A stretch of 62,126 bases of DNA, filler included, from Basidioascus undulatus (GCA_000826855.1; 5 parts of 5 records of this genome joined end to end with filler, not necessarily neighbours in it); one strand, 5' to 3'; shown: positions 446 to 49,789, counted from the whole stretch's first letter. Numbers and translations: made by a program. The notes: generated by a model from the letters alone, not told the origin.

Positions 446-3272
446 CCGAAAACGAAAGCTTCGCGCGGTCGAGCGAAACAAGACGGGAGGGAGGCTTTGC
501 CGCAACGTCTAGGGGGCGGCGGGCATCAAGCGTCCCGAACCATCCATCCCAGCTGAGGTCGTACACAAGATCTTCAAGTCGTCGGACATCAGTTCCGATT
601 CCCCTGAATCGGCTTGGGAGTGCGCACAGCGCGCTCAGTCTCCGTCAGCAGATGAATTTAATTTGTCAGTTGAAGCGCATGATTCTCTCAATTTCCTAGC
701 GTCTGCATTTCGACTGTAACTGAAGTTGCCCCTTCGCCAGTCGCATCCTGCACGCATGCCAGCATTGTCCCTGCTATGATAAGTGTGCACGCTGACAAGC
801 TTCGACGAGTGCCGAATGTGCCTGCTTCTCTTTTATTGACCGATCTGTACAGGTGTGCAATGTTGCCAGGTGCCGTCAGGACGGTCAATGCTGCTCGCAT
901 TTGCGTCCTTCGCTCGGGACCAGCTAGGCTTTGTTACAATTCTGATGAATTCGGCATTGTGAGCTTCGTTCAATCTGATCCGCTTTGTATTAGGGAGGTC
1001 AGGAGCGCATGGGCGAGTGGGACAGGCTCCTGCCGGCCAGGGCACCACTTTTACATGCTTGCTCTCTTCCTCAGCAGCAGCCTAGACATTATTGATAAGC
1101 TTTTATGAACTTCGGTTGACGTAGGGGCGAAGTGGTCCTGGGCGGGCAAGATTGCCAATGTATCGCCTCCGACCTGGTTCTCTCCCCCGAGCATCAGCAC
1201 TCGGGGCAGAATCAGAAGAGCCGATACCAGTAGATCCTGCATTCAGCTGTCTAATAACCTCTCGAGGCAGCTGGAGTATAAATTACTTCGTGCTTCCATT
1301 TCAGTGTCTGGGTGCTGTCCCTCAGAAACATTAGATTCAGAGCGGCGGCCAGCCGAGTGTACCGAGTGTGATTGCAGGCTTGTAGTGTCATTGCAGGGTT
1401 GTTGTGCTGATTTGCAGACCTTGCTAAGGGGCGTGGATGCGAAATGATTTTCATCGTACAAGTCTGATATACCCAGGTGCAGGTAAAGTTTCATTGTTCA
1501 TTGGTGTAGTGCATTGATGTGGTGCATTGATGTACACGCCTATGCCCCACCTCTCTCCAGCACTCCAACGCAACTCAATGGATCCAGACCCTCTTGGATG
1601 CAACACCCCTCCCTTACATGACAAGTGTTATGAGGCTCTGAGCATCCTGATCATTGCCTCTCCAAGAGAAGAAATGTGGTGGCATGCGTCTCGCAGGACC
1701 AGAAGCCAGAAAACACTGTTAGGAGAGTGTGGCGAGAATGATGATCGCTGCAAGCAGGCAGTACGAGGATAAGCCAGACCATTGGGGAGAGGCCTTGATA
1801 CACAATCTCCCTGGATATGTTGACCCAGAATAAGCTGAACGGGTGGACAGGCTTGTCAGTCGCGCACTGGATGTCTTCCCGCAACTGCACGCACCCCAGC
1901 CAGGTTTGAAAGGAGTGTTCCAGCCGGCAGTGACAAACTGTACAGCTTATCCTGTCATCTCAAAGGTCTATATGGAAAGGTAAAGCCCAAACGCAACCGC
2001 CAGGCCAAACATGCCATGATGACTGGCAGCAAAACAAGGAGACCGCCGCTAGGCGGAGCGCGGCCACCAGATGCTTGCCATGCCGAGCGGAAGAAGCGTC
2101 AAAGGAGGCAAAGATAACAAGAAGGGTTGTAGGTATGGGAAGTTAGTTGAGCAGCAAACGAGAAGCAACCGTTCGCTTGGTTGGAGCTGAGGAGACAGTG
2201 TATCAAAGCCTGACCGCCGAGGGCCTGGAACTTGCACATGGAACTGTGGGCAGGCTTGAGGGCCATAAGTATTCAGCGTCGAGGCCTCCTATCGGTCAGA
2301 CAAACCTCCTGGTGTGTGATAGGAACGGCAAATCTTGTGTCAAGCAGATCCATGCAACTCAAAAGACTGTTGTGGATGGGGAATCGGACCTGCTGCACGC
2401 AGTGACGGCCCTCTCCCTTCAAGTTCTTTGTGAGGGTTTCGATGCGAGATCACACTTGTAAGTCAATGTGAAACTGTAATAAGTCCGCATTGAGAAATTT
2501 GCAGTCGCCCTTCAATCTCAGAACACCTCCAGATCACCTTTTCCGCATCAAAGTATCCAGAAGTCGTTGTGGTGCACACCGGCTGGCCATGGGGGAAGGT
2601 CTAAACCTCACATGGCGAGGGGCCGTTAAGCAGCAACATCGCCGTTTGCCTTCAAGTGTGCATGCGAACTGCACTCGAATATCCCATACCGACCGCATGA
2701 AAGAAAAGAAAGCTGTCGGTTGCGAGAGGAGAGATTCGCGATGCGCGGGCTGCCGGGCAAGCAGCCTGCAGCGGAAGTGGATTTCGACTCGCAGTGTCGT
2801 CCGACCCAAACAGCAGACAGCAGACTCACGTGTGCACGTCTCTCGCGTGCAGGACGCCAACGACGAGGCGGCGAAATATAAATGGCATGAAGCCAAGGCC
2901 AGTTGTCGGTCAAACACGGGCCACATGACCTTCGTTCCCCGGAGCAGCTTGTGGACAACGAACGGTTTCCTGTCGGCTTCCTCAGCAGTCTGGTACGCCC
3001 CCGAGTTGGCCGCGGCTCCATGGAGTTTCGTGGAGTTCCTGGTTGCTCGCCCGTCCAGGACCCTGTTTGGCGCACCAATAAACGACCCACCAAAGTCGAA
3101 GGCCACCGACTTGAGCCTTCGCCGTCTGTACGCGGGGGTCCAAGCTGTCCAGAGGCGCTCGCTGCAATATTAGAGCTGCACGCCCTTCCGCAGGCTCTGT
3201 CCACCGCCACCCTTCTTCTTTTTCCTCTATCCTCTCCCACTAGAGCCCCCCCCGAAGAGACCCATTTTCAGC

Positions 3273-5819
3273 ATGTCAGAGACAAAAGACTTGAAGCGGG
3301 AGGTATCGCACGTGGATCATGTCTACAAGTGCGTTTCATTGCATGCACCACGCTCCTTTCACCGATTGCGACTCATCCCAGCCTTTCTTTTCAGGGAGGA
3401 CTTGCGCGCCGCCGAGGGGCAGGAGCACATCAACCTGAACAGGAACGTCTCTGGCAGGTCCGTCTTTCTCGCTCTCTTCATCCCTCCCATGCATGCGTCG
3501 CCGCTCACTGTGGCACTGCCTTGCAGGATCCGCAACCCCTTGGCTGGTATCCCGCGCGAGCAGCTGCTGCATCAGGTGGACGAGTTTGCGCACGAGGCGG
3601 GCATGACGGACATCCTCCCGCTCCTCCACAAGGGCGCGCTCGTCGCCCAGAACCCGGCCGAGTTCGAGTCGGTCGCCGAGCTCGAGGACGTCGAGCGCGA
3701 GGCGCTCCGCAACGAGGTCCTCCACAAGTGGCGCCAGCCGCTCTCCCTCTACCTCACCATCATCACTTGCTCTATCGGCGCGGCCGTGCAGTGAGTCCTT
3801 CTACAGTGTGGAAGTTGGGGAAGCGACGTGTTGCTGACAGGCAGCGTGGTGACCGCAGGGGTTGGGACCAGACGGGGTCCAACGGTGCCAACCTCTCCTT
3901 CCCTACGGAGTTCGGCATCGCTGCGGCTGAGGGAGAGCCAAACCACGACCGGGACAACTGGATTGTAGGTATTGTGAATGCGGCACCGTACCTTGCCTCT
4001 GCTTTTCTGTGCGTCGGCACTCTCCGCCCTTGCTCATACAGTCCAGCACTGACCAGCTTTTCCATCTGTTGTAGTGGCTGCTGGATCTCCGACCCGCTGA
4101 ACCACTACTTCGGCCGTCGCGGCACCATCTTCTTCTCCGGCATTTTCTGCTTCCTCCCTGTCATCGGCTGCGCTTTCTGCCAGAACTGGCAACAGCTCTT
4201 CATCTGTCGCCTTCTCATGGGCATCGGAATGGGTTCGAAGGGATCCACGGTCCCCATCTACGCTGCCGAGAACAGCCCCGCCTCGATCCGTGGAGGTCTC
4301 GTCATGAGCTGGCAGATGTGGACCGCATTCGGTATCTTCTTGTAAGCAATCAAACCCCTTAGCGCTTACTCCGACCCTGTTGAGCTTGCGCGCTGACATT
4401 CCTCTGACTTTTTAACACGTAACAGGGGTTTCTGTGCCAACCTGGCTGTCTTCAAGGTCGGCGACATCGCTTGGCGCTTGCAACTCGGCTCGGCCTTCAT
4501 CCCCGCCATCCCGCTCCTCCTTCTCATCTACTTCTGCCCCGAGTCCCCACGCTGGTACATCAAGAAGGGCCGGTTCCAGGACGCGTACAAGTCTCTAGTC
4601 CGTCTTCGCAACACGCCGCTCCAGGCCGCCCGCGACCTGTACTACATCAACGTCCAGCTCATCGAGGAGTCCGCCATCATCGGCAAGAGCAACTATGTCA
4701 CGCGCTTCATCCAGCTCTTCACCATCCCCCGCGTTCGTCGCGCTACGCTCGCGTCTTTCACGGTAATGCTCGGGCAGCAGGTGAGTGTCTCGTATTCCAA
4801 TTCCCCTGTTCCGAACCGTGAAAGACGGCTGACATGGCTGCACCCACCCGTAGATGTGCGGCATCAACATCATCGCGTTCTACTCCTCCACTGTCTTCCG
4901 CGGTGCCGGCGCCTCCACCAAGGAGGCACTCCTCGCCTCGTGGGGCTTCGGTCTCGTCAACTTCGTCTTCGCCTGGCCCGCCATCCGCACGATCGACTCC
5001 TTCGGGCGCCGTAGCCTTCTCCTTTTCACCTTCCCGCAGATGGCCTGGACGCTGCTTGCCGCCGGGTTCTGCTTCTACATCCCCGAGTCGAGCAAGGCGC
5101 ACCTTGGACTCATCGCGCTCTTCATCTTCCTCTTCGCTGCGTTCTACTCGCCCGGCGAGGGGCCCGTGCCGTTCACGTACTCTGCCGAGGTCTTCCCTCT
5201 GTCCCACCGTGGTGCGCATTCCATTCCTCTGGGTGGGTCTGACTTGCTTTTGCTAATTCTCATTGAGTACATCTGCTTCAGAGGTCGGCATGAGCTGGGC
5301 AGTGGCGACGTGCTTGTTCTGGGCTGCGATTCTTTCCATCACCTTCCCCCGCATGCTTTCCGCTTTCGGCAGTGTTGGCAGTTTCGGGTTCTACGCGTAC
5401 GGGCCATTTTGTTTCCTCCATTTCTCCTACACCAGACTGACCCTTTTTCTCGTCGCTCCAGGGGCCTGAACGTCATCGCTCTCATCATGATCTTCCTCTG
5501 GGTGCCCGAGACAAAGCAGCGCACGCTTGAAGAGCTCGACTATGTCTGTGAGTCTTCCAAACTTCATTCTCTTCCACTTCCCATCAAATTTTCTCGTCGA
5601 TGTTCATACGACTGATTGTGTTCCATGCACCCCTTACTCTCAGTTGCCGTGCCGACCCGCACGCACATGCACTACCAAGTCACCAAGGCGCTGCCGTACT
5701 TCATCCGGCGCTGGGTCTTCTTCGACAAGAACGCCACCCTCGAGCCGCTCTACCACTTCGACGCTCCCGTCGCTTCTGACGCGGACAAGGCCGTTGTTAA
5801 GGAGAAGCAGTTGCAGTAG
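3273..5819 (+). CDS. MFS sugar porter family transporter (myo-inositol/polyol-like), about 9 introns
   Basis: Spliced exons give [15 protein letters not shown]..., [117 protein letters not shown] introns; stop TAG at 5817-5819. Confidence 0.93.
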
Positions 5820-6880
5820 AGCGCGATTCGTCTTCTGTGCAATGTACCGTGTATAGTTCAGGGCACGGATTGTCTTGTATTCATGCTTGCCATCATTCAT
5901 TGGGTATGTTAGTACGCACGCATTTTGCGGTCATTGTTAATATCGTCGTCCAAGTCTGCTGCCCTGATAAGTTCCTTGATGTAGTTGAAAAGCAAAAAAG
6001 CGCAGATTGCTGGAGCTTCGAGCTCAACCACCGTTTCGCTTGCGGTGAGGTAGGGCGAGTATTCTCAGCGAAGCTTAGGGGTTTTAAACAGCTGGGGTAA
6101 CTAGAAGGATAGGTCGGCTTTCAGGCCCGAATAGAGGAGCGCGATGGCGGAACGCAGTGGACCTGGCTGCCGTATAGATTATGCGGGCCAATCCCAAGGT
6201 CCGATGAAGTACCCGGTTGCCATAGACCCAAGCATGAAAGTTTGAGAAAGTAGCATTCAGGCATCGGACCACACAAGCATGCTAAACCAAACAGCTGTGG
6301 GGTCCATGGTACATCGTGCACTGCGCCAGCGATCAGACAGGACACCTGCAGCCGCTTGCTTGGATTTAGACAGACCCATCCTTTCCAATTTTGGTCCAGA
6401 GCTATATCGGGATTACATTTACCCCGTCAAAAAGCCCAGTAGCTGACTCTTTTCTGCGCAACGAGTGCGGGAAGATCTTGTGCTCTGCCAGCCGGGCACA
6501 ACAATGGCTGTAGCTCCCCCGCTTTGAGCTGGCGGAATCCTACTTTCAGGTAAGATGTTACACACAAAATCTCCGGATTTTGTTTTCTATGTCAAAGCAA
6601 GGCGAGCTTTCACCTGTTGATCTGTGCGACTGGTGCAGCAGGTGCCAAACACATCCCTTCCTTTTGCAGAGAATGAAGCGCCGACAGCCCGACAACATTT
6701 CCAGTGTTCCGCATGAATACCAAGCACAGGCACGCGAAGTCATTTCAGGCGTACAAACATACTTCTCCTGAAAGTCACACGAAGCAACCCCGCGCACCAA
6801 GACTACCACGAAACCCGCAGTCGAAATACATTCCCCTTCGCTCTGCTCCCCTGCTCCCTTCCACGTACGTCTACCATACC

Positions 6881-9013
<2,133 letters not shown>

Positions 9014-9699
9014 TGTATTCTCGTCTTGAATCTAAGGGTATGGGTGGCTTGGGTATGGGGTCTGTAGCCCTGATGGTGGTGATGGTGGTAGCGAACGTAG
9101 AGCAGATAAAGCAGAGAATCTTGAAACGAAACGACAAGGTCGAGCATGAGCCGTGAGGTCGAGGGTCGGTTCGTAGTTTGCCGGCCACTCCGGCACGCGT
9201 TGGCCCGGCTATGATGGCTGACAATTCACGTCGTTGTGTTTTCGTGTTTCATTTATTCGAACGTGTTTTCCTTCCTCTACAGTTTGCCTTGACAACTCAC
9301 TACCACTAGGAGGTGCAGTATTACTATCGACAATCCTCGTTGTGTGGCTGGTCTACTCTTTCCAGTTTCATGAAAGCGTCTACTTCATGAAATGAGCGCT
9401 CCTCGGCCTGCATAGGCTTGAAGGCGCGACGTGCCTTCCTTTACTTCTTGTCCTCTTGCACACCTGACCCTCCCGCACAATATCACCTACTCATCATACC
9501 AGCTGACGATGAGACTCAAGCTCCAAGTATAAGAGATCGATTGGCGAAGGAGGAAGGGACAGCAAGGGAGACGAGATGTCGGATACGGAGGTGGATATCG
9601 CGGTGCGTCCGACTATGCTGCTTCCCAACATCTCATACACCTTGACTTGCGCTTGCTTCTGCCGACGGTCCTGCAGAGCAAGCTCCTCAAAGCGCTCTC

Positions 9700-11235
9700 C
9701 TTTTCCTTCACCCACATGGGCGTGATTGACTACGCGCCCACCCCATCGCACCCCTTCACCCACCGGACTTCCCCCTTCTCGCACCGCATCCAACGCTGCA
9801 CGCCCCCGCCCTCTGCGGACCGCACGGGCCGTCCCTCTCGCCGGCGGAGATCCGGCGCTTCAAAGCGGCCGCGACGAGCTCCGAGCCGGGCGTGTGGGAG
9901 ATCGCGGACGTGCCCACGTCCAACCCGGCCTGGGACCGCTGGCTGGGCGGTAGTCGAGGCGGCGCAGGTGGGGCTGGGCGTGCAGGGCTCGAGGGAGGAC
10001 GTGAGGGCTGTGTCGGGAAGGATGGTCTTGTTTGAGGGAAGGGGCGAGGTCGCTGCTGCGTGAGTCCAGTTCAGTCCGGCACATGAGCACATCCTTCCGC
10101 ATATGCTAAACAAAAGTCGTTGTTTCGGGGGAAAAGGGTCTACACCCCTTCAAGGCTCGCTCGGAACGCTCATGATCGTTCTACCAAGGCCGCACACGGG
10201 CGGGACGCTGCGGCTCTCCGCGAGCTGGCAGACGCGCTCGTTCGACTCGGGCCGTCGAGCGAGTTCAATGCGAGCTTCGTAGCCGCGTAGTCTGGTTATC
10301 CATTCCATCTGTGTCTTTGCGACTGGTATTCTTAATGCATGCTACCAGGTGGTACAACGGCGTCCAGACGCGCCTCGCCTCGCCCCTCACGTCCGGCGTG
10401 CGCCTCGCCCGTTTCTACGACGTCCTCTATTACACGGGCTTGACGCCGCCGACGGTCCCCGATCACGGAAAGGCGACTGCCGACCTTCGCTGGGTGCGTT
10501 AGCACTTTCCGTGTCTCTGTATTTCCCTTGATACGGCGCCCCGGCTGCACGGACAGGTTCTCCGCAAGTAGCTCTCCCTCAAATCGCCGGAGCGTCTTGC
10601 CTTTCTGCTGAAGAAACCACCTCTGTGCGCGTCTTCCTGGTTCCCATTCTCCCTCTCGTCTCTTTCCTGCCTCCTGATTCCTCTCCCCATTGACTTTCTT
10701 CCAGTCGCCCTCCCCTGAACAGTAACCCCTCCCTTGCGACCCTCCGCGGCGTCGACAGCGCGGCGGTGCAAGTCCTGCTTGACCTCCGCGGCCCGCTCAA
10801 CATCCTCCTCTTCTTCGGCTTGGTCGAGCACATCGTGTCCGGCGACGCGGTTTGCGTATGGGAACCGTACGCGGACCTCGGTGCGGACTGGGAGGGCCCG
10901 CCGGGGAAGCGCAAGGGTTTCCTGGGCAGGGAGTACCTCGACGAGGAGCAGATGCCTGAGTTCGCGGAGTACGAGATGGACGGGGAGCCGTAGAGAGGAA
11001 GACTTGTAGCTGTCTTTTAGGCGTCTGCGCGAGGGTGAAGAGAGGTACATTGATGCGCTGAAGATGGACAGATGTCACCCAGTTGGTCGGAATCGATGGC
11101 TCGAAGATCAAGTTCGCCCCGCGCGCGTTCGCGCTCAGGGACGGCGAGCTCGCTGCGGCAAGAGAGCGGCTTGAGGAGTGGCGGAACGACGAGAAGCATG
11201 ATGGAGAGGTGAGCGGCGATCTTGCTGTCCGAGGT
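9700..11235 (+). pseudogene. Degenerate fungal 2OG-Fe(II) oxygenase-like gene
   Basis: Segments WEIADVPTSNPAWDRWL / VVEAAQVGLGV...RMVLFE / LGTLMIVLPRPHTGGTLRL / SEFNASFVA / WYNGV...PLTSGVRL / LATLRGVD resemble this family in order, but need frame changes near 9948 and 10250 and cross stops near 10991-11010. Boundaries approximate. Confidence 0.55.
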
Positions 11236-12360
11236 GAGCGGAGCGCCCACTCACCAAGGCTGACTGTTATTGTGTGCGATATAGACATATGAATGGCGTA
11301 AGGACCAGCTCTGACAGTAACAGGACGTGCCGGGCAGCTAAACTCGTCTCTTACCCACGCAAACCCAGACTACCGCCACACCGCCGTCCTCCTCCTCCCC
11401 ACGCACAGATACCTCGACCTCGTCCGATGTGCCTATCAGGACGAATCCTGCCTCCAGGACCTCTCCACGCGCCTGCGGTCCGTCCTCGCCTCGCCCCCCC
11501 TCGCCCTCCCACACAGCCGAGCTGTCCGCCCTCGCGCGCGTGGCCCTGCGCAGCGCGCGCGACTGCCCGTACCCATCCGCGATGTCGTACGCGTGGCCCG
11601 TGAGCTCAGTGGGGATCACCCAAGTACTCAGCCTGGTCGTCCAGATCGCTGCGAGGCTCAAGACCTGAAGCTGTTTGTCCTGGCTGCGGATACAGCGCTC
11701 GCGAGGTCCCTGCCGGTGATGGAATTGCTGGATGAGGGGGTTGTGGCGTTTGGGGGGATGTGATCAAGGAGAAGTGAGGTAGATTCTTCCTTCGCTCTGA
11801 AGATCGGGTGCTTATGTCTCTTCTATTATGATAGGTTCGCAGGCGCGATCGAGGTCCTGCTGAATGCCGACGCATGCCGCCATGTTCTCTGGACAATGGT
11901 GCTCAAAATGGGGATAGCGCTGGTGTTGGCCGATCCTGCATCGGATCCCAAGCGCAAGGCGACGGACGGGCACGAGACCAAGCCGTCGCCGAATGCACGC
12001 CAGTGAAACTGTTTCGAGGCTTGGTGCATTTGCGCGGTACGGGACGCTGGGCGCACTGGGCGCTGCATGATTGATCTCTTAGAGCTCGTTGTCTACTTGC
12101 TTGTTATAATTTTGCAACCTTTTGAACCGCCAGACTCAGAACGCTCGGGGCTGTCTTGCACTCCGCACCCAATGGCTGGGACATCGCGCTGCGTCGCGCT
12201 GTCCGCGATATTGCGACCATCTGCCACCTTCCGCACAAGCAAACCATTGCCTCAATCGAGCAATCAAGTACTACCTCTCCCCCGCAGCAACCTCCTCCCA
12301 CCTCCTCCTCCTCCCGCGCTCCTTCCAGTCCCCCTGCCCCTCCTCCTCCTCCTCCACCTC

Positions 12361-12460
12361 NNNNNNNNNNNNNNNNNNNNNNNNNNNNNNNNNNNNNNNN
12401 NNNNTTAATTAATTAANNNNNNNNNNNNNNNNNNNNNNNNNNNNNNNNNNNNNNNNNNNN
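12361..12460. other. Artificial contig linker
   Basis: N44-TTAATTAATTAA-N44 (stops in all six frames), identical in four places. Confidence 0.98.
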
Positions 12461-12866
12461 CTCTCCCAGCCGCAGCTGTACCTACCAAACCTCCTCCCCA
12501 TCCAAGCGTCCCTCCTCTCCGCCATCCCGCACCGCGCCTCCGTCCCCCTCCAAAACCCGCAAAGCCGGCACGCGCCGCCAGCCCGTTGCAGTCGTCGACG
12601 ACTCGGACACGTCCGACACGGACGACGGCGCCGCGGTCGGCGCGCTCCTTCTTCGCGCTGGCAGCCCGATGCGCCTCGGCACGCCCGCAAGGTTCACGCT
12701 CGCCGCTGGGGAGCGGATGGAGCTCGGGACGCCTACGAAACCACCCCCGGACGTGGACGTCTTCGGGTCTAGCGCGATGGACATCACCTCGCCACCCCGC
12801 CTCGCGGTGCCGCTCTTGCCTACGAGACGGAGCGCGAGGGTCGCGGCGAGGGTGGGCGTGGCGTAG
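12461..12866 (+). CDS. 3' end of an unknown low-complexity protein, truncated by contig start
   Basis: Open frame from the contig edge [23 protein letters not shown]...DDSDTSDTDDG...PTRRSARVAARVGVA* followed by AT-richer UTR-like sequence. Confidence 0.5.
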
Positions 12867-13327
12867 AGCGTGATTTGAGTTGCTGGTGATACCCGCTGGA
12901 TTGGTGCTTCGTATTTTCTGCTACTTTCTGAGCATTGCGCTGTGACTTGCATTGTACATACTTTAACTGCTCGTGTACATTGTACTTCTATTGTGTTTGT
13001 GCAATCTATCACGCGTCGAGGCCCTGGATGCATGCGGTCGGCGTGGCTGGAAATTTCTGACTGCGTACAAGCCTGACCGTCAATAGGCATACGAAGTGCG
13101 CGTGTGTTACTGCCTGCAGAGGCTGAGCCATGGCATAACAGACGAACATTCCGCGAGTCGACGGCGTTCGCAAGACTGCGACTCTTCAAGTCGATTCAGT
13201 CTCACTATTACAACACACACTGCTTATGTGTTCAGCGAATCGCAGAATGATATTCGATTTACAGATTCAATTAGGTCACTTCGAGGCTCACTTTCCTGGT
13301 ACCGAAGCGTGTCGGCCGCCGGGTAGC

Positions 13328-14643
13328 GTTTTCCTGATCTCCCTGGCAGAACACGACTCCAGCTTGGCCATCGCCGCCTTCTCCGCGACCTGCTCGTCTC
13401 CTCGACCACTCTTCGCTCGATTTGCATGGCATTCGCTCATCTCAAACCGGCAGCATGTACTTCTCACCGCGTATCGCGTATTCTCGCGTTCGCTATCATT
13501 CCGAACCTCGACCCGGATGCCGAGGTGGCAAACTGACCCGGAGCTGCGCAGCTCGAACTGAGGCTGGTGTGCATATCATTGAACATGCGCATGCGAATCT
13601 ATGGCTCTTCTCTCTTCGTGGGCTAAAATTCAATGTGTTATCAGGTGATTGCGATCCCGTTGCTTTCCAAAAAGCTCGCCCTTGTCGATTTGACCTACAT
13701 CCTCGGCCTTGCGGCGCACCTCGCTCGATGCCACCTTCGAGGCGCAAATGAAAATCTGGATGCTACATTCGCGACATCGAGATATATATAGAGATATCCC
13801 ATGTTTTGCTCAAAGTTTTTCATATGACGCTCATGTCAATCATCACCCACACGCCTCGCCTCGCATTTCCTGTTCCGATTGCAAGGCGACCCCGTCACGT
13901 ACCAGCGTCCTCCGATTGCGCGCGTCTTGCTGCTCTGTACCATGCGCCTCAACATTCCGGATTCTCGAGGGCCTTCATGTCACCCTCGAGCAGGATTTGC
14001 TTCTTGCCTTCCTCAACACCTGCACGAATCGCTCTACGGGTCCAACAATATCGAATCGCACACTATTTCGGGCGTAGGTCTAGTACTAACTCGTCTTCGG
14101 GATATACGTTGGTCACCGAGCGTGATGACGCCGCTTTCACGCATACCCTGATGCGCTCAGAGCTGCTGATGCTTCGGACACTGGATCTCGAGTTCCGAAA
14201 AGCCAGACTGTCGTCAAGGAGCATCACATATGCGGATTTTCTCGAAAGACTCGCTCAATAGCTTGCATCTTGATGACAGCGGGGGTGCTGAACGGCCGTT
14301 CAGCGCTTCTGTCCGTCTCTCCACTCAATCACTCTATCCAAGAAGATCTTCGCATCTTGGGAGGTTCATTCGCTCCAAAACTCTATGATCATACAATAAT
14401 CTCCGAGAGTGCTACATGCTAGACGAAGGCGGCAAATCCACCAGCTTTCTCAGAGCGGTACAGCTCTGTCCTCCGCCGATGCTCGAGCGAGTGGTGCTCG
14501 TCGACTTCGATGCTTTCGACACCTTCGAGGCGGACGAGAAGCTACTGCTCGAAGAGCATTCGTTGAGGTTTGCTGAGCGGGAAATTGTGCTAGAAGTTGA
14601 ATGCCCTGGCCAAGTCGTCACATTTGGCCCCTCCCATGATTGA
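13328..14643 (+). pseudogene. Possible decayed F-box/LRR-like gene
   Basis: FPDLP...LLVSSTTLRSIC resembles an F-box start; Leu-rich fragments (LRTLDLEF, PPMLERVVLVDF) lie in different frames with stops. Confidence 0.25.
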
Positions 14644-24817: not shown

Positions 24818-24917
24818 NNNNNNNNNNNNNNNNNNNNNNNNNNNNNNNNNNNNNNNNNNNNTTAATTAATTAANNNNNNNNNNNNNNNNNNNNNNNNNNN
24901 NNNNNNNNNNNNNNNNN
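24818..24917. other. Artificial contig linker
   Basis: N44-TTAATTAATTAA-N44. Confidence 0.98.
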
Positions 24918-24929
24918 GCGGTAGTTGAG

Positions 24930-25002
24930 ATCAGGGGGTTGCAGGTTCGATCCCTGCGTCGGTCACGGCCGGCTGGCTCAATGGTAGAGTATCTGACTAC
25001 GA
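24930..25002 (+). tRNA. tRNA-Arg(ACG) with halves in permuted order: 3' half 24930-24965, 1-nt spacer, 5' half 24967-25002
   Basis: 5' half GGCCGGC-TG-GCTC-AATGGTA-GAGT-A-TCTGA-CT-ACG-A and 3' half A-TCAGG-GGGTT-GCAGG-TTCGATC-CCTGC-GTCGGTC-A reassemble into a full 72-nt cloverleaf with all four stems paired (WC or G-U). Confidence 0.8.
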
Positions 25003-25003
25003 C

Positions 25004-25009
25004 TTTTTT
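25004..25009 (+). terminator. Pol III oligo-dT terminator
   Basis: TTTTTT starts 2 nt after tRNA position 37 of the 5' half. Confidence 0.65.
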
Positions 25010-25180
25010 GTTTCTCTCAACTCTCAGGCCTCACACGCCAGCAATGAAAACTCTCTTTTTCAAGATGGTCAAGAATCGTTCATTGCAAGAAAACTTACAC
25101 TTTCAATGGTAAGGAGCTTGCGGCCAGCCCGGCAGCTGGCTCGAAGCGGCGGCATTGCCAAGAAAATAATGGTAGGTACT

Positions 25181-26325
25181 TCAGCCTCCCGTTTCGAGAC
25201 GGAGATAAGGGGCAAATATCTCACCGGACAGAGTGGGAGGAAGTGACAGCGGGTGGAAGACGAGCGGCTGCGGAGGAAGCAGTGCCGCGTACGCTGCATG
25301 GGCAGCGTGCGACGCGAGGAGCCCAGCTGCTGGTTCTGGAGCTGGGCGTGGGCGGGAGGGAAGCTCTGGGGGTGGTACTCGCTGAAGGGGTGCCGAACTT
25401 GAGGCAGACGCAGAGGCAGAGGCGGAGGGGCTGCATGCGAAAATGAGAAGTCTTCCTTCATCGATAAGCACACACACGCACCTTGCGGCAGGATCGCCAG
25501 CCTCCCAACCGCAGCAAGGCATCTGAGCGCCTTGACCAGCTCCTGCGCGGGGATCCTCTTGATCGCGCCGGCCGGGATGGGGCCAGCGAAGTCGGCGGCG
25601 GTGCCCTGGTCGGTCGACGCGACGGCTGCGCTGCGGGAGATGTGCGAGGCGGACGGTCCGCCGAGCGCAGCGGCTATATGTGGTTGAGCGCGAGGTGGGA
25701 GGGCGGCGTGGAGAGACTGGTTCGTGGGCTCGCTCGGCTACTCGACTTTGACTTTGGGCGACGGCGGCGAGTGGGGGCTCTTTTCGGCTGCCGAGCGTAG
25801 AACCACCGCCCCAGCGCGCGAGTTGATGCCCTCCTCTGGAGCTCCTCCAGTTTAAGCTCGAGATTTGGGAGAGTGTATTTCATCAGAACGCACCTTCGCT
25901 CAACGCCTTCCGCTGCTTCTTCGTCCCTGACCCATTGGCCCTGAAGAACGTCTCGTGCACGAAACACTCAAGGGGTGAGGTTCTTCGACTTGAACCGGAA
26001 GCCGGCGGGCACGCCAACCAAGTCAGGGAGAGCAGACTGATCTTCCTTCTGGTTGAGGTGACCGAGGCTTTTGAGGGCCGAAATGGGAGCGGACGTGGGA
26101 TGCTGGGTGGGGACGCGGCGGCTGGAGCGTGAACGACCACGATGCTCGAACCCGTGGATATGAAGTGAGTCTCAGATATTTGCGACGGAGGTTTGGGTAG
26201 GATTTTGAAAGGGTTTGCAACGTATGCGTGGGCGATGGGACGATCAGGACAACAGAACATGAAAGCCAGGAAGAAGGAAAGAAGCCGCCGCGTTCGCGTT
26301 CGATCGTCCTCCGCCTCTTCGGCAT
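25181..26325 (-). pseudogene. Possible decayed hypothetical gene
   Basis: Coding-like fragments (KYTLPNLELKLEELQRR; AIKRIPAQELVKALRCLAAVGRLAIL) are broken by stops and frame changes; no family recognised. Confidence 0.2.
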
Positions 26326-32499: not shown

Positions 32500-34326
32500 C
32501 TACTTTTGCGGGCTAACCGTAAGACTTGAGTACGTGTAACAAAGAGGAAACTGGGTGGTGTCCATCGCATCGCGCACCGCGACGCCGTCCATCATCCCGC
32601 CGAAGATCATTGGGTCGTCGAGCGAGGCCTTCCCGAGGCGCTCCGCCGTGGCATCGATCATGACCGTGTTGCCCTCGAACGCTGTCAGACGGGCGGGGTG
32701 GTCGAGCGCCTGCCACGCCGACCACAGCCTGTCGACGTTCGTGTGGTGCAGGTAGAAGAGAGGGTCGTTGGCGGCGGAAGAGTCTGGAGGAGAGCAAGAG
32801 CGGTCAGTAAGAACGCAGCGTGAGAATATGGTGATGAGATCTTGACTCACTCAAGCGGACACCTTGAGCCATGTCGCCGCCCAAGGCGACGTGGATGGTG
32901 GAGTCTGGGGTGCGGTTGCGAAATCACAGTCAGGCGATACGAAATGATATGAGAGAAGAGAGGACGCACGAGGGCCGATTATACGTCCGCGCTCGGACGG
33001 GATATTGCCCTCGAGGAGGTCACGGAAATCAAAGTAGCTCTCCTGACCGAGGATGAAGGCCATGCGCTCGGGGTTGCTGCGCGATGCAGGCTTGATTAGC
33101 CGACTGCGAGGGCACAAGTACATTTTGGTCAAGAACCGGCAGACTTACATGGTCTCGCCGTAGTAGAGGCCAGAACTTAGATAGGTATTCAATAAGCAAC
33201 AGACCAATGGAGTATAGCTGTGTTACTCACGGGGCGGGGATGGATGGGAAAGGCGACGAGCGCAGATTGCGGGAGAGCTTGTGAGTGAACCTGGGCGTTG
33301 TTTCAATGTCAGCGGGGTTCTAGTAGAGGCCGGAAACTCAGAATGCATACGGGATGGTGATGTCCATGAAGGGGTAGGCGCCGTCTGACACGATTTCGGC
33401 TTCTGAATTCACCAACACGATAGCAGTCAGTACTCAGCGGCGATCATGGAATACGATGCAAACGCACGGAAAAGGTTGCCCTCGACGTAAGAGCCGAAGC
33501 TGCCATGTCCTGCTTCGGGGTCACTGTCCCAGATGGGGGAGGCGGAGAGGTCGGCGTAGTCGAGGTCCCAGCTCCAGTCTGGTGGAGAAGTCAGGATATT
33601 GCTGAGAGAGAGCGAGGTGGTGAAATGCACTGGCTTACAGGGCATCTCTTCAGTGAGGCCACACGCCTTGAGTTCTTGGTGGAAGAGCCATACGAACCTA
33701 CAGGTCCTCGAGTTTGTAAGCCTCTGACTCGTTGGTGGAGTGAGAGACAGCTCTTACCACCGATGCCAGGGCAGGAACTGCGCAGAATGGAAGAGAAATC
33801 AGCGACACTCAACGGGTGGAGCTCAACAGACTCACCTGCGCCACCCAGTGGATATCTTGACCCGGCTGCCAGTGAACCCACTCAAACTGCAGCCAGAATC
33901 CTCAAAACCTCTCAGCGACAGTCCTCCCCATAGCCCAGACAGCGAGTCACTCACGTCTTCGAACCTCCCCGTGCTCGGGAACTCGTTGCTGAGCCCAAGC
34001 GACTCCTTCTTCCTCATGCAGTTGAGGGCCTGCATGTAGTTTATGCGCTCCTCCCGCGAAAGGTCGCGCCAGTCCTTGCGCAGTCCGATCGACTCGCACG
34101 TCCCGACCTTGCCGATCGCAGCGCCCGCAGACTGGAGACTGCTTTTCAGTCCACCAGACTCCGGCCGGTCGTCGCCATCTGTGGCGGAGTCTACTATATC
34201 GTTGGCCTCCCGCACGGCCCCCTCGGCCAGGTCGTCGACGAGGTCGGTTGGTTGTGGTAAAGCGTGGGCTGGGAGGAAGAGGGCGAAGGCGAGCCAGATG
34301 AGAGCGGAGGAGGACGTGCAGCGCAT
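32500..34326 (-). CDS. Secreted tyrosinase-like di-copper-centre protein
   Basis: Signal peptide MRCTSSSALIWLAFALFLPAHA; LRKDWRDLSREERINYMQALNC; CuA His in FEWVH..DIH..FLPWHR; PYWSW; CuB His in GPHSTIH..ANDPLFYLHHTNVDRLW; C-terminal LCYTY. Exons join in frame. Confidence 0.92.
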
Positions 34327-35928
34327 GGTGGCGAGTGCAAGTGTGGCTCGGAGCTTCGGTGGGGGAGATGGGTGGGAGACGTGAGAGGAAAAGGGGTGGC
34401 TAGGAACAGTTGAGGTCTTTTGTATCCCGGAGTGTGATGAAGAGGTGCGAAGCGTGGCATGCAAAATAGATAGCGACCACCGGGTAGCGTTACGGCACGG
34501 CAGGGGCTGGAGTTGGTTTACCTTCGCATCTGGGGGGGCGAGGGAGACAGGACAGGAATACACGCGAATTGCGAGATGCAGAACCAACATTCAAGGGTGG
34601 CAGACCCAACAGGTCCATCGGCCCATCCCGCAGGGTAAGGCGCCAGCACTGTTTCGTGCGGGTTTGTCTCTAGGCCCGTTGAGGCAAATCAGACGTCCAT
34701 TTCCCCCTTCCCGCATCAAACAATGAGCTTTCGTCTGGTCTCTTGGATCCGGGTCTGCAAGACATGTAAATATTCTCTGTCTAGTCTTGACGGAGCTCTT
34801 TCAAGCGTTCGGAGGGCAGTTTTGGCATGAGACCGCTCCCATCCCAGACCGCTCCACACGCGCCATCGGCACTTGAGCATGTCTCTAAGCCAAAGAAAGG
34901 CTTGAGAAAGACATCTATCACTTGAGTGACACGCACTGGTTTCGCTGTGAAGCTTTTTACGCTTGCACATGGTGGACGCCGCCCGTGCATCGCCGTGGAT
35001 GTCAGACGTTCGGGGGCTCGGGTTGGGACAACGTTCTAGCTATATGGAAGATAAAACAAGTTGCCTAATTATCGTTCTTGAGAGAGAGCACTTTGTACAC
35101 TTGCGTACTTCACATACACACACAGACTCTCTCCCCAATCGATGCTTTCCTCGGAAGGTCGCAGTTTACCGAACCTCATAAAAATAAAAGGAACCCAGCC
35201 ATCAGAGAAGGGTAGAGGAAACGCCTGAAATGTGGTACAGTTATACCACATCGCCGGTGCGTCAGGAACCAATTTTCAGAGGTCCAGTAACGGCCACTGA
35301 CGCTCAGCTGCAGCTGTAGGTCGGATGGGCTGAAAACTCGTGGGAACGGGAAGTTTGGTTGGAAAATATCTCCTATAACATGTCATCATGCAGGCCTTGA
35401 GCTTGAGCTTGAGCAGTGCAACACTGCAACATTGTCTTTGAGTGCAGTGTGAGGAGTAACGTTGCGGTTGTCCGACATCAAGAGGTATCAAGGCCCTTGA
35501 CTCATTACTCAAGGATCTGTTGCTGGGAAACTGTTAATAACTACACGAGAAGAAATGTCTGGCTTTCTGCGGCGATGTGCTGTGATCGACGTGAGTGTCC
35601 ACTGTTTGACCGAGAGAACGCGCATGGAAATGGAACACAGTAGTTTACCTTATCCACAGAATTTAATAGACCGGGTCAAAAAGTGATCATTGCTCTATTC
35701 TGCCTTGCCAAGTGGGACGACGCGAGCCGAAGTAGTGCCACGGCCTGAACCCAGCGAGCAAGCGGACTTTGCCGCGCAAACTCTCAGTCTCGCCCTCTTT
35801 GACGCTCGCCATCCCCGCCTCCTCCGCCCGCATCCCCCGTCGCGTCTCAGTCGCGTCTTCTACTTCCCTCCCATCTCCTGCACCAGTACCCCTCCATCTT
35901 CTTCTTCTTCTCGCACATCAATCGATTG

Positions 35929-37250
35929 ATGCCGGCCAAGAAGCGCACGCGCCCGAGCGTGCTCGACCGCGACGTCTGGTCGCTCTCGTACGTAGAGGAC
36001 AACAGCTTCGGCCCCGCCTCAGAGCCGCTCGACATCGCGCGCTTCGTCGCCGACGCAGAGCGCGTCGTCGAAGACGTCCAGGCGCTCGAGATTCCCGAGT
36101 CTGAGCACGAGAGGATCGAGGCGATCTGCAGGTGCGCCTCATCCCATGTTCCCTCGCTGGGTTGTTGGATGAGACGCTGAAGGACGGCGGGCTGTGCGGG
36201 AACAGCTTGGAGCCGATCCTCGGACCTAGGGACGACATTCTTGCCGAGCCACGACTCGTCCATGTCATCCGCTCAGTCGTCGACATGCGCCTGAAGAACG
36301 CCCTCCCGGCTAGCATGGTGGACAAGGTCAAGGTCTCCACGACGGGGAAGGGCAAGGGCGCGAAAGGCAAGGGAAAGGGGAAGAAGACGACGCCTGGCGA
36401 GGGAGGTGAGGGTGAGGAGGCCGAGGAGGAAGACGAGGAGGACGAGGAGGACGACGATGAGGATGAGGCGAGGAAAGAGTGGCGCGAGAGCGTCAGGCAC
36501 GAGCTGGAGCACTGCCCTCTTCGCATCGCCAGGTGCGTCTTCCTCTTGAATCGAGCGAGTTTTCTCCGGGACCCGCTGACGCGACGATTCCATAGACTCC
36601 CTCCCGAAACCCCGTCCTACACCCGCAAGTCGCGCCAACCCGACTACACAGCCCTGATCGCGCCGATCCCCTCGACCGCCTCGTCCGCGTCCGCCCCCGC
36701 ATCCATGCCGCTCGCGCTGCTCGAGTTCACGCTCCACGCGCGGTCGGACAAGTCGACCGCGCTGCCGATCCAGCAGAAGATCGTGCTGCACTCGGAGCAG
36801 ACGCTCGCGGACCTGCGCGACGCGATCAAGTGCGAGAGCGACCGCATGCCGGTCGAGGACGCCGATGGGTGGAGGGCCGTGTCGAGGGTTGCCGGCGCGT
36901 GCTTTGGGATCGAGGGCGTGCTATATTCGGATACGAGGGAGGAGGGCGTGCTGGATTACGCGCAGTACGTCAAGAGAGCTCGGATGGCTTGTTCGGGTTG
37001 TCGGATAGCTAACAAGGCATTGCGTCGCAGGGCCGTTCTCTCCGCCCTTCCTGTCCCTTATCGGGCGTCGACAACCCCGATGCACCTCACGACGTTCTCC
37101 TCCCTTCCGCTGCGCACGGACCAGCCGTACTGGTACCTCCACCAAGGCAACTGCGAGCACCTCTTCACTCTCTCTTCCATCCGGTACGTTTCCCCCCCAC
37201 CCCTTCCCCTTTGCCCTTTCGCTCGCTCCGGTCCGTCCGCGCCATCCCCT
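35929..37250 (+). CDS. SNAPC3: snRNA-activating protein complex subunit 3 (SNAP50) homolog, 3'-truncated
   Basis: QTLADLRDAIKC, ACFGIEGVLYSD and TFSSLPLRTDQPYWYLHQGNCEHLFTLSSIR match the SNAP50 C-terminal Zn-finger lead-in (PY.Y.HQG.CEH). Confidence 0.8.
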
Positions 37251-37350
37251 NNNNNNNNNNNNNNNNNNNNNNNNNNNNNNNNNNNNNNNNNNNNTTAATT
37301 AATTAANNNNNNNNNNNNNNNNNNNNNNNNNNNNNNNNNNNNNNNNNNNN
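37251..37350. other. Artificial contig linker
   Basis: N44-TTAATTAATTAA-N44. Confidence 0.98.
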
Positions 37351-42495: not shown

Positions 42496-43965
<1,470 letters not shown>

Positions 43966-49689: not shown

Positions 49690-49789
49690 NNNNNNNNNNN
49701 NNNNNNNNNNNNNNNNNNNNNNNNNNNNNNNNNTTAATTAATTAANNNNNNNNNNNNNNNNNNNNNNNNNNNNNNNNNNNNNNNNNNNN
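49690..49789. other. Artificial contig linker
   Basis: N44-TTAATTAATTAA-N44. Confidence 0.98.

Follow-up and report, generated by a model that had tools for sequence, protein, structure and literature searches.

The third contig of the stretch analysed here opens with a tRNA-Arg(ACG) unit in which the tRNA's 3' half precedes the 5' half, and this rotated unit is real and multicopy in a fungus. Judging from its sequence, we favour on balance the reading that the unit is a member of a dispersed family of working circularly permuted tRNA-Arg(ACG) genes, a family of roughly 30 copies, at least 10 of whose loci differ in their downstream flank, with a type II junction (37/38) and an intervening sequence of 1 nt. 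The window, meaning the whole stretch of 62,126 nucleotides, is composed of five contigs of about 12.3 kb, separated by linkers of the form N44-TTAATTAATTAA-N44. The third contig spans 24918-37250 and the rotated unit occupies its first bases, so that the contig does begin 12 nt upstream of the tRNA, as the first-pass annotation had stated. The unit is made up of the following features:

24918-24929, + strand: leader GCGGTAGTTGAG, 12 nt; putatively equivalent to a 37/38 intron, either in full or in its 3' part
24930-24965, + strand: 3' half of tRNA-Arg(ACG), positions 38-73 (from sequence, ARAGORN and fold); comprises the 3' strand of the anticodon stem, a 5-nt variable loop, the T arm, the 3' acceptor strand and the discriminator A73
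24944-24954, + strand: box B GGTTCGATCCC, positions 52-62 (from sequence and box scan), upstream of box A
24966, + strand: intervening sequence, a single C between A73 and G1 (from sequence; crossed by high-depth short contigs)
24967-25002, + strand: 5' half, positions 1-37 with position 17 absent (from sequence, ARAGORN and fold); comprises the 5' acceptor strand, the D arm, the 5' strand of the anticodon stem and the loop CUACGA
24974-24984, + strand: box A TGGCTCAATGG, which covers positions 8-19 and lies 30 nt downstream of the box B start
24999-25001, + strand: anticodon ACG, inside the 5' half
25003, + strand: trailer C, putative counterpart of the first intron base
25004-25009, + strand: T6, a Pol III terminator-like run after A37 and the trailer C

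The letters at these coordinates match the layout that had been proposed for 24918-25009 (leader, positions 38-73, C, positions 1-37, C, T6). The 3' half stands ahead of the 5' half, with both on one strand, and the junction lies between A37 (25002), which ends the 5' half, and A38 (24930), which starts the 3' half, precisely at the 37/38 break assigned earlier. No T run separates the two halves in the sequence, and the 1-nt intervening sequence at 24966 falls within the known range of 1-74 nt. The 62 kb window contains a single occurrence of each half when up to three mismatches are allowed (0 expected from 100 shuffles). Box B stands before box A, as the first-pass annotation had it, the reverse of the conventional order of a Pol III type 2 promoter. 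This is the single arrangement of its kind in the window among 27 B-box-like sites on both strands; the box B consensus is described in PMC3978253 (section 5).

Exchanging the halves restores a complete cloverleaf, as had been claimed. All 21 of the named stem pairs are standard (17 Watson-Crick and four G-U), and with 24930-25002 presented as a circle ARAGORN calls one complete tRNA-Arg(acg) of 73 bases; linear ARAGORN runs on the whole window, with and without introns, return zero tRNAs. The conserved residues U8, G18G19, U33 and T54-C56 can be read in the rotated tRNA. Folding energies are neutral toward the cloverleaf, neither for nor against it: the predicted precursor has a minimum free energy (MFE) of -28.5 versus -27.3 when the cloverleaf pairs are imposed and pairing of the flanks is unconstrained (z = -0.17 against shuffles), and the circle has an MFE of -17.3 versus -15.3 when folded as a cloverleaf whose acceptor stem has 6 bp and is closed by a loop of 4 nt. 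The pair G1-C72 must open in the circle, because closure of the acceptor stem by 2 nt is impossible.

An Rfam search of 24918-25400 with E up to 10 returned the YrlA tRNA-like module at 24933-24997 with 30.3 bits and, besides this sub-threshold match, only two matches at chance level. Identity with YrlA (RF02553) was rejected, the gathering threshold of that family being 69 bits. YrlA, a bacterial Y RNA, presents a T arm, a closed acceptor-like stem and a D arm in the same order as the fungal unit; it occurs in bacteria or on phages and lacks an anticodon arm, whereas the fungal unit regains a full anticodon arm by joining its ends.

The leader had been described as intron-like, and the two likenesses named for it can be read in the sequence: its GTAG is complementary to CTAC of the anticodon loop, and a G at intron position -3 stands opposite C32. 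Conventional relatives extend this comparison. A scan of metagenomes with the D arm and anticodon loop of the 5' half yielded 20 loci, all 20 in conventional order, and the closest of these genes (L003, L008, which equals L012, L014 and L018) are identical to the rotated tRNA at 64-65 of 72 exon positions, 32-33 of 36 in the 3' half and 32 of 36 in the 5' half. These genes run from 5' half through intron and 3' half to a T run, and the fungal unit holds the same parts rotated, with the acceptor ends joined by a C. Their introns at 37/38 measure 8-11 nt and carry a GTAG core in three of the four; the 11-nt introns of three relatives read ATTGTAGGCTA, ATCGTAGGTTA and ATTGTAGGCCT. The leader, (C)GGTAGTTGAG, has the length and the GTAG core of these three introns and is complementary to C32-C35. 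By its sequence, the 12-nt leader thus resembles a complete conventional tRNA-Arg(ACG) intron in size and GTAG core, which the first-pass annotation had not noted. With an intron-like leader, the predicted precursor would be an ordinary pre-tRNA-Arg whose intron is open near the 5' end and whose acceptor ends are tied by one C. Compared with the relatives, pair 7-66 is C-G instead of G-C, pair 6-67 is G-U instead of U-U, and pair 49-65 is G-C instead of G-U, so that, at the level of sequence, pairing in the rotated tRNA is kept or improved. The permuted arrangement, searched for as a T loop, a spacing of 20-44 nt, a D arm and CTACGA, had no instance in contigs from metagenomes, prokaryote genomes and viruses, collections with few or no fungal genomes.

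How the leader would pair with the anticodon loop can be drawn in several ways. In the MFE fold of the precursor (RNAfold), the leader's GUAGUU pairs with G30-C35, a 6-bp version of the GUAG:CUAC helix. Aligned by hand in the canonical register, G(-3) pairs with C32, followed by a U-U mismatch and the pairs U:A34 and G:C35, with 3-nt bulges at AG|A38 and G36-A37|C; a second register, also set by hand, forms the 4-bp GUAG:CUAC helix between the leader and C32-C35. In the canonical register, the pairing of leader and trailer departs from a strict bulge-helix-bulge in that its 4-bp helix contains the U-U mismatch. The trailer consists of C and U residues only.

Two read sets, X1 (unique depth 17.3) and X2 (52.5), cover the stretch completely, and their contigs were compared with 24918-25717; both possibly come from the source sample and are in that case not independent of the assembly. 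A third set, X3, labelled 'DNA?', covers 0.08 of the sampled words. About the first 100 bases (24918-25025) are matched by 63 of 24,453 contigs in X1 and by 62 of 16,194 in X2. The summed depth on this block is 1108-4308 in X1 and 3500-13497 in X2, compared with 17.3 and 52.5 on the unique part, values that constitute an upper bound because contigs that overlap enter the sums repeatedly; on the 5' half the summed depth is about double that on the 3' half. The A73-C-G1 joint is crossed in X1 by record 5, free of differences over 24936-24988 and at depth 298.3, and by record 4, with one difference over 24936-24991 and at depth 175.4. Together the two amount to about 27 single-copy depths, a sturdier estimate than the sums. 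Under a bridging rule of 31 letters on each side of the joint, to which records 4 and 5 bring 30 on the left and 22-25 on the right, the only bridging contigs are X1 record 2 and X2 record 10 (4.2 and 18.5 kb; 24927-25009; six differences). Contigs of this type are paths of 31-letter words seen in the reads, and every word of X1 records 4 and 5 should then span the joint. Record 5 continues past A73 without a branch. This suggests that, wherever the final 30 nt of the 3' half occur unchanged, the same sequence follows and not, for instance, a terminator. Within X1, 36 of the 63 contigs are at least 99% alike on the block, and diverged copies with five to six differences in 57-83 nt are represented by records 2 and 3. 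The order 3' half, C, 5' half, T run is therefore real DNA in two read sets and forms a dispersed repeat of dozens of copies. This multicopy family, which is new beyond the first-pass annotation, probably accounts for the contig break at the unit; position 24918 is probably where the assembler stopped inside the repeat, about 92-101 nt from unique flank, and not the edge of the element.

The flanks of the copies, described here among the contig pieces and loose ends listed, delimit the repeated unit. Downstream, the copies part into at least nine different flanks within the T run or immediately behind it. The loose ends listed behind 25007-25012 in X1 belong to nine contigs in four groups, and flanks in X2 begin at 25007-25018; since copies diverge only from 25007 on, every copy seen keeps the C and at least T4. 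Upstream, flanks begin at 24919/24920 in three listed contigs of X1 and five of X2, and as other copies diverge before this point, GGTAGTTGAG belongs to the repeated unit. About nine more contigs per run match as far as 24918 and continue upstream out of view, so that the left edge of the unit is known from three to five copies. In the upstream flanks visible for these three to five copies, no 5' half precedes the leader, and the sole clean upstream flank contained in a single contig has no resemblance to it. The 30-nt consensus sequences visible for the upstream flanks of other copies contain no TATA and have AAAG..TAAC in common.

We propose that such a gene would work as follows. Pol III would start slightly upstream of the leader and stop in the T run, giving a primary transcript of leader, positions 38-73, C, positions 1-37 and C-U(n), the two halves of which would fold into a normal cloverleaf. 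The leader would pair with the anticodon loop, through GUAG:CUAC or G(-3):C32, like the intron of a conventional pre-tRNA-Arg, and through this pairing the endonuclease would see an ordinary 37/38 substrate with an intron open in its 5' loop. The tRNA splicing endonuclease would cut away both leader and C-U(n) trailer, after which A37 and A38 would be joined by tRNA ligase, and RNase P would cut between the linker C and G1. This cut may follow ligation and act on a 73-nt circle as in algae, which is one possible order, or it may precede ligation, giving a two-piece tRNA held by the acceptor stem with no circle formed. In budding yeast, end processing precedes splicing, and the two-piece order would follow if the same holds here. 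The yeast endonuclease resides on mitochondria and the ligase in the cytosol (PMC3978253), and the eukaryotic endonuclease is described as measuring from the mature domain and needing an anticodon-intron pair (PMC3978253, section 8). After RNase P cleavage, the linker C could serve as C74; the 3' end would in either order already read A73-C, leaving the CCA enzyme only CA to add and making a tRNase Z cut unnecessary. Initiation is the weakest step of this proposal, the reversed boxes being ill-suited to TFIIIC; a box B upstream of box A is a geometry described as unsuited to this factor in section 5 of PMC3978253.

Much of this layout is shared with the permuted tRNA genes already described. 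Table 1 of PMC3978253 lists 34 of them, from six algae and Thermofilum pendens; most of the eukaryotic entries are of type II with intervening sequences of 5-74 nt, and the sole 1-nt entry is archaeal. Sections 4-6 and 8 of the same source characterise these genes by type II junctions, by intervening sequences 1-74 nt long, by a T stretch downstream and by processing of the splicing type, and section 6 has the circle of the algal tRNAs form first and be cleaved at the ends afterwards. A permuted gene in the sense of Soma et al. 2007 would further be expected to have a gene-external promoter upstream, with a TATA-like sequence within 50 bp, and a leader and trailer that adopt a bulge-helix-bulge or relaxed hBH motif at the cut sites. 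A 2025 preprint adds permuted tRNA genes of Auxenochlorella (PMC12633428), and a 2026 review places the eukaryotic exceptions in unicellular algae. Among the papers listed, judged by title and the opening of the abstract, our search of the open literature found no permuted tRNA gene of a fungus, in line with the earlier statement that no fungal example is known.

The closest counterparts are the type II genes of green algae (Ostreococcus, Micromonas), of the Bigelowiella natans nucleomorph and of Cyanidioschyzon merolae (Soma 2007 and Maruyama 2010, via PMC3978253), which have the same order of halves and the same 37/38 junction. As portrayed there, the algal genes and the fungal unit also have in common a short, terminator-free intervening sequence, a T stretch after the 5' half, a CCA that is not encoded and, more tentatively, a leader and trailer that can pair around the splice sites. 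The fungal unit differs in its host, the eukaryotic cases covered by these sources being unicellular algae, in its intervening sequence of 1 nt compared with the 5-74 nt of the eukaryotic cases in Table 1 of PMC3978253, and in its dozens of dispersed copies, whereas algal permuted genes are given as one or two. Arg(ACG) is absent from the 34 genes tabulated there, and expression and a circular intermediate are reported for algal genes, whereas the fungal unit is described here from its DNA sequence. The tRNA-Tyr(GTA) gene of Thermofilum pendens (Chan, Cozen and Lowe 2011, via PMC3978253) likewise has a 1-nt intervening sequence and, with it, the same puzzle as to the opening of an acceptor loop this short; according to that account, it differs in being archaeal and single-copy, with its junction at 59/60, an encoded CCA and an extra intron.

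The unit also carries a trace of how it may have arisen. GGTAGTTGAG, 36 nt, C, 36 nt and C add up to 84 nt, the length of a single round of a circle that consists of the 5' half, an 11-nt intron CGGTAGTTGAG, the 3' half and a C. The joining of exact mature ends, at the RNase P and 3'-processing sites, through a single C suggests an origin at the RNA level, and we postulate reverse transcription of a circularised, intron-containing pre-tRNA, which corresponds to model C for the origin of permuted genes in section 10 of PMC3978253 (reverse transcription of a circular pre-tRNA). A tandem duplication at the DNA level would be expected to bring flanking sequence with it.

A bolder version of the favoured reading, which we advance only tentatively and regard as somewhat doubtful, holds that the fungus has no conventional tRNA-Arg(ACG) gene and that the approximately 30 permuted copies supply all tRNA-Arg(ICG). 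The family would then have arisen and spread through reverse transcription of circularised, end-processed, intron-containing pre-tRNA and would be transcribed from a gene-external Pol III promoter. RNase P would act first to leave a two-piece tRNA, in which the endonuclease and a Trl1-type ligase would then unite A37 with A38, and C74 would be supplied by the linker C with no use of tRNase Z, a route of maturation that would be one not described for algae.

The multicopy nature of the unit, which underlies the favoured reading, also lends itself to an alternative that we consider possible, if unlikely: the copies may be dead, a circular or tandem pre-tRNA-Arg having been retro-inserted or a small repeat having spread otherwise, with conventional genes doing the decoding. 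About 27 single-copy depths and 62-63 contigs are more than a genome of about 35 Mb would be expected to carry for one isoacceptor. A unit with the length of one circle turn and its exact mature ends joined is the signature of a retro-copy, the reversed box order offers no obvious promoter, and the members in X1 records 2 and 3, with five to six differences in 57-83 nt, have diverged. Most members, however, are near-identical over the tRNA part (36 of 63 contigs at least 99% alike), and the leader and T run are kept in every copy seen, where the precursor needs them. The unbranched contig across A73 suggests, moreover, that there is no conventional gene with the same 3' half, which a parent gene should share, and the unit possesses neither a tRNA-unrelated body nor an A-rich tail.

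This compactness also separates the unit from tRNA-derived SINEs, which are likewise multicopy, dispersed and tRNA-derived, with Pol III-type boxes. In SINEs, box A still comes before box B, and a body unrelated to the tRNA follows together with a tail. The fungal repeat is a block of only about 90 nt, which holds the whole tRNA with its halves exchanged and has a T run at its end. A tRNA-derived SINE was rejected, given that box B stands before box A and that the flanks diverge right outside the leader and the T run with no body present.

Improbable, in our view, is the second half of the choice that the first-pass annotation had left between a permuted gene and a duplication intermediate. 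In such an intermediate, a complete or partial 5' half and the start of an intron would precede the unit, and perhaps many of the other copies; an ordinary intron-containing gene would be transcribed through box A and then box B, and the downstream 5' half would be mere trailer. The upstream flank of the copy at 24918 is cut by the contig start, the approximately nine contigs per run that continue upstream out of view could hold such a sequence, and in green algae, according to section 10 of PMC3978253, permuted genes have as neighbours intron-containing tRNA genes in tandem and an additional 5' half. A further point in its favour is X3 record 17 (93 nt), which runs through 24958-24982 and then 24920-24987; it repeats with a period of 63, with positions 1-21 of the 5' half placed before the leader and the A-then-B order restored, and it may represent a related tandem product. 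Against this, the upstream flanks that are visible (three contigs in X1, five in X2) are unrelated to the 5' half, which speaks for a permuted gene and disfavours the intermediate for those copies. Two long X1 contigs that end in the 3' half (records 1 and 3; 5.5 and 2.6 kb) have no second piece on the 5' half, and a joint from 25002/25003 to 24919/24920 is reported in none of the three runs X1, X2 and X3. In the copy at 24918 itself, the bases before GGTAG are GC and not the AT of the D loop.

It is very improbable that the unit is expressed as something other than a decoding tRNA, such as a 5' tRNA half ending in A37-C-U(n), for which Pol III would start upstream of box A, inside the 3' half, or else, with the whole unit involved, a tRNA-like RNA or a TFIIIC-binding site. 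A terminator 29 nt after box A, the YrlA tRNA-like module as the sole notable Rfam match (30.3 bits) and the roughly twofold summed depth of the 5' half would suit this explanation. The YrlA match nevertheless lies far under the gathering score of 69, both halves are intact and complementary, and the conserved leader would be without a role; we know of no precedent for non-decoding expression of such a unit. Finally, a chimeric assembly, which the first-pass annotation had kept in view and for which the position of the block at the very end of a contig, within a repeat, might speak, is excluded for practical purposes, as the same order of parts recurs in contigs built independently from two read sets (depths 17.3 and 52.5), is embedded in contigs 4.2 and 18.5 kb long, and has high depth.

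If functional, the unit would bring permuted tRNA genes to a new kingdom, in unusual copy number and with a 1-nt linker. A fungal multicopy family would place permuted tRNA genes in the opisthokonts, the group that is open to genetics and has the best-understood Pol III promoters, tRNA splicing (the Sen complex and Trl1), RNase P and sequence of processing steps. The rarity of permuted genes is explained in part by the need for TFIIIC-independent transcription (PMC3978253), and such a family would make it testable how Pol III starts on a gene with reversed internal boxes, whether RNase P opens a 1-nt acceptor closure, and whether permuted genes arise from circular RNA. As standard tRNA finders miss rotated genes, fungal genomes may be wrongly annotated as being without their main arginine tRNA.

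The gene content of the window agrees with the fungal host that had been proposed, the protein matches of an Hsp70 and a tyrosinase being fungal, and from the sequence the host is probably a basidiomycete. Had the contig come from an alga in a mixed assembly, a permuted tRNA would have been unremarkable. Open reading frames in the window are interrupted by short introns. On the third contig, a tyrosinase exon (PF00264) has as its single match a Sordariales protein with 49% identity, and a gene with a SNAPC3 domain is present, its SNAPC3-like open reading frame having one distant match only. On the fifth contig, an exon from a lumenal Hsp70 gene gave 15 matches, led by Ceratobasidium and Rhizoctonia (46-48% identity) and followed by Tremellomycetes; the best of these lumenal Hsp70 matches fall in the Cantharellales.

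The independent upstream flanks of the other copies, which are dispersed permuted tRNA-Arg(ACG) units with differing flanks in contigs of the sequencing runs X1 and X2, have in common an AAAG..TAAC-like motif located about 5-16 nt before GGTAG. The flanks compared are the loose ends of contigs before window position 24919/24920, one of those with the motif reading CAAAGCGTAAC. The motif may represent a promoter element upstream of the unit; alternatively, it may reflect a weak homology that reaches past the leader. In the window, the leader ends in AGTTGAG (24923-24929), and its exact reverse complement, CTCAACT (25016-25022), is located 7 nt after the T6 tract. Given read-through by Pol III, this leader end and the CTCAACT trailer could pair. 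As the downstream flanks differ in the other copies, the complementarity is probably due to chance or a relic.

The contig that carries the permuted unit has, at its end, an open reading frame with a SNAPC3 domain.

36105-37250, plus strand: ORF with SNAPC3 domain (PF12251, 81 bits, E 1.2e-22)

The ORF has a single, distant database match. In other eukaryotes, the snRNA-activating complex drives gene-external promoters, and from this ORF the fungus seems to possess such a complex. We regard the complex as a lead, not as evidence, on how transcription might proceed for a gene whose internal boxes are reversed.

A different arrangement is seen in a third sequencing run, X3, where a 93-nt contig (record 17) reaches a depth of 32.7, compared to a unique depth of 4.6. 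It matches window positions 24958-24982, followed by 24920-24987, and its first 30 letters are identical to its last 30. This contig is a tandem or circular unit with a period of 63, in which positions 1-21 of the 5' half continue via the shared GGTAG directly into TTGAG and the 3' half. The resulting unit is tRNA-like, lacks the anticodon arm, and carries box A upstream of box B.

Summed contig depth over the 5' half (window 24972-24998) is approximately twice that over the 3' half (24918-24971), with 4308 versus 2324-2704 in X1, and 13497 versus 5743-6351 in X2. This excess may stem from additional 5' halves standing alone, from other tRNAs with the same D arm, or from overlapping contigs that are counted twice.

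The window is composed of five contigs of 12,333-12,360 bases each, separated by linkers of the form N44-TTAATTAATTAA-N44.

12361-12460, 24818-24917, 37251-37350 and 49690-49789: contig linkers

The window is thus not one piece of DNA, and neighbourhood arguments across the linkers are meaningless. Two further loci, one on the permuted unit's contig and one on the fourth contig, are ordinary fungal genes, which served solely for taxonomic placement.

32503-32850 and 33832-34590, minus strand: tyrosinase gene of at least two exons (PF00264), permuted unit's contig; the upstream ORF (33832-34590), without a Pfam match, is counted as tyrosinase by eye only
42713-43720, plus strand: 3-dehydroquinate synthase domain (PF01761), fourth contig
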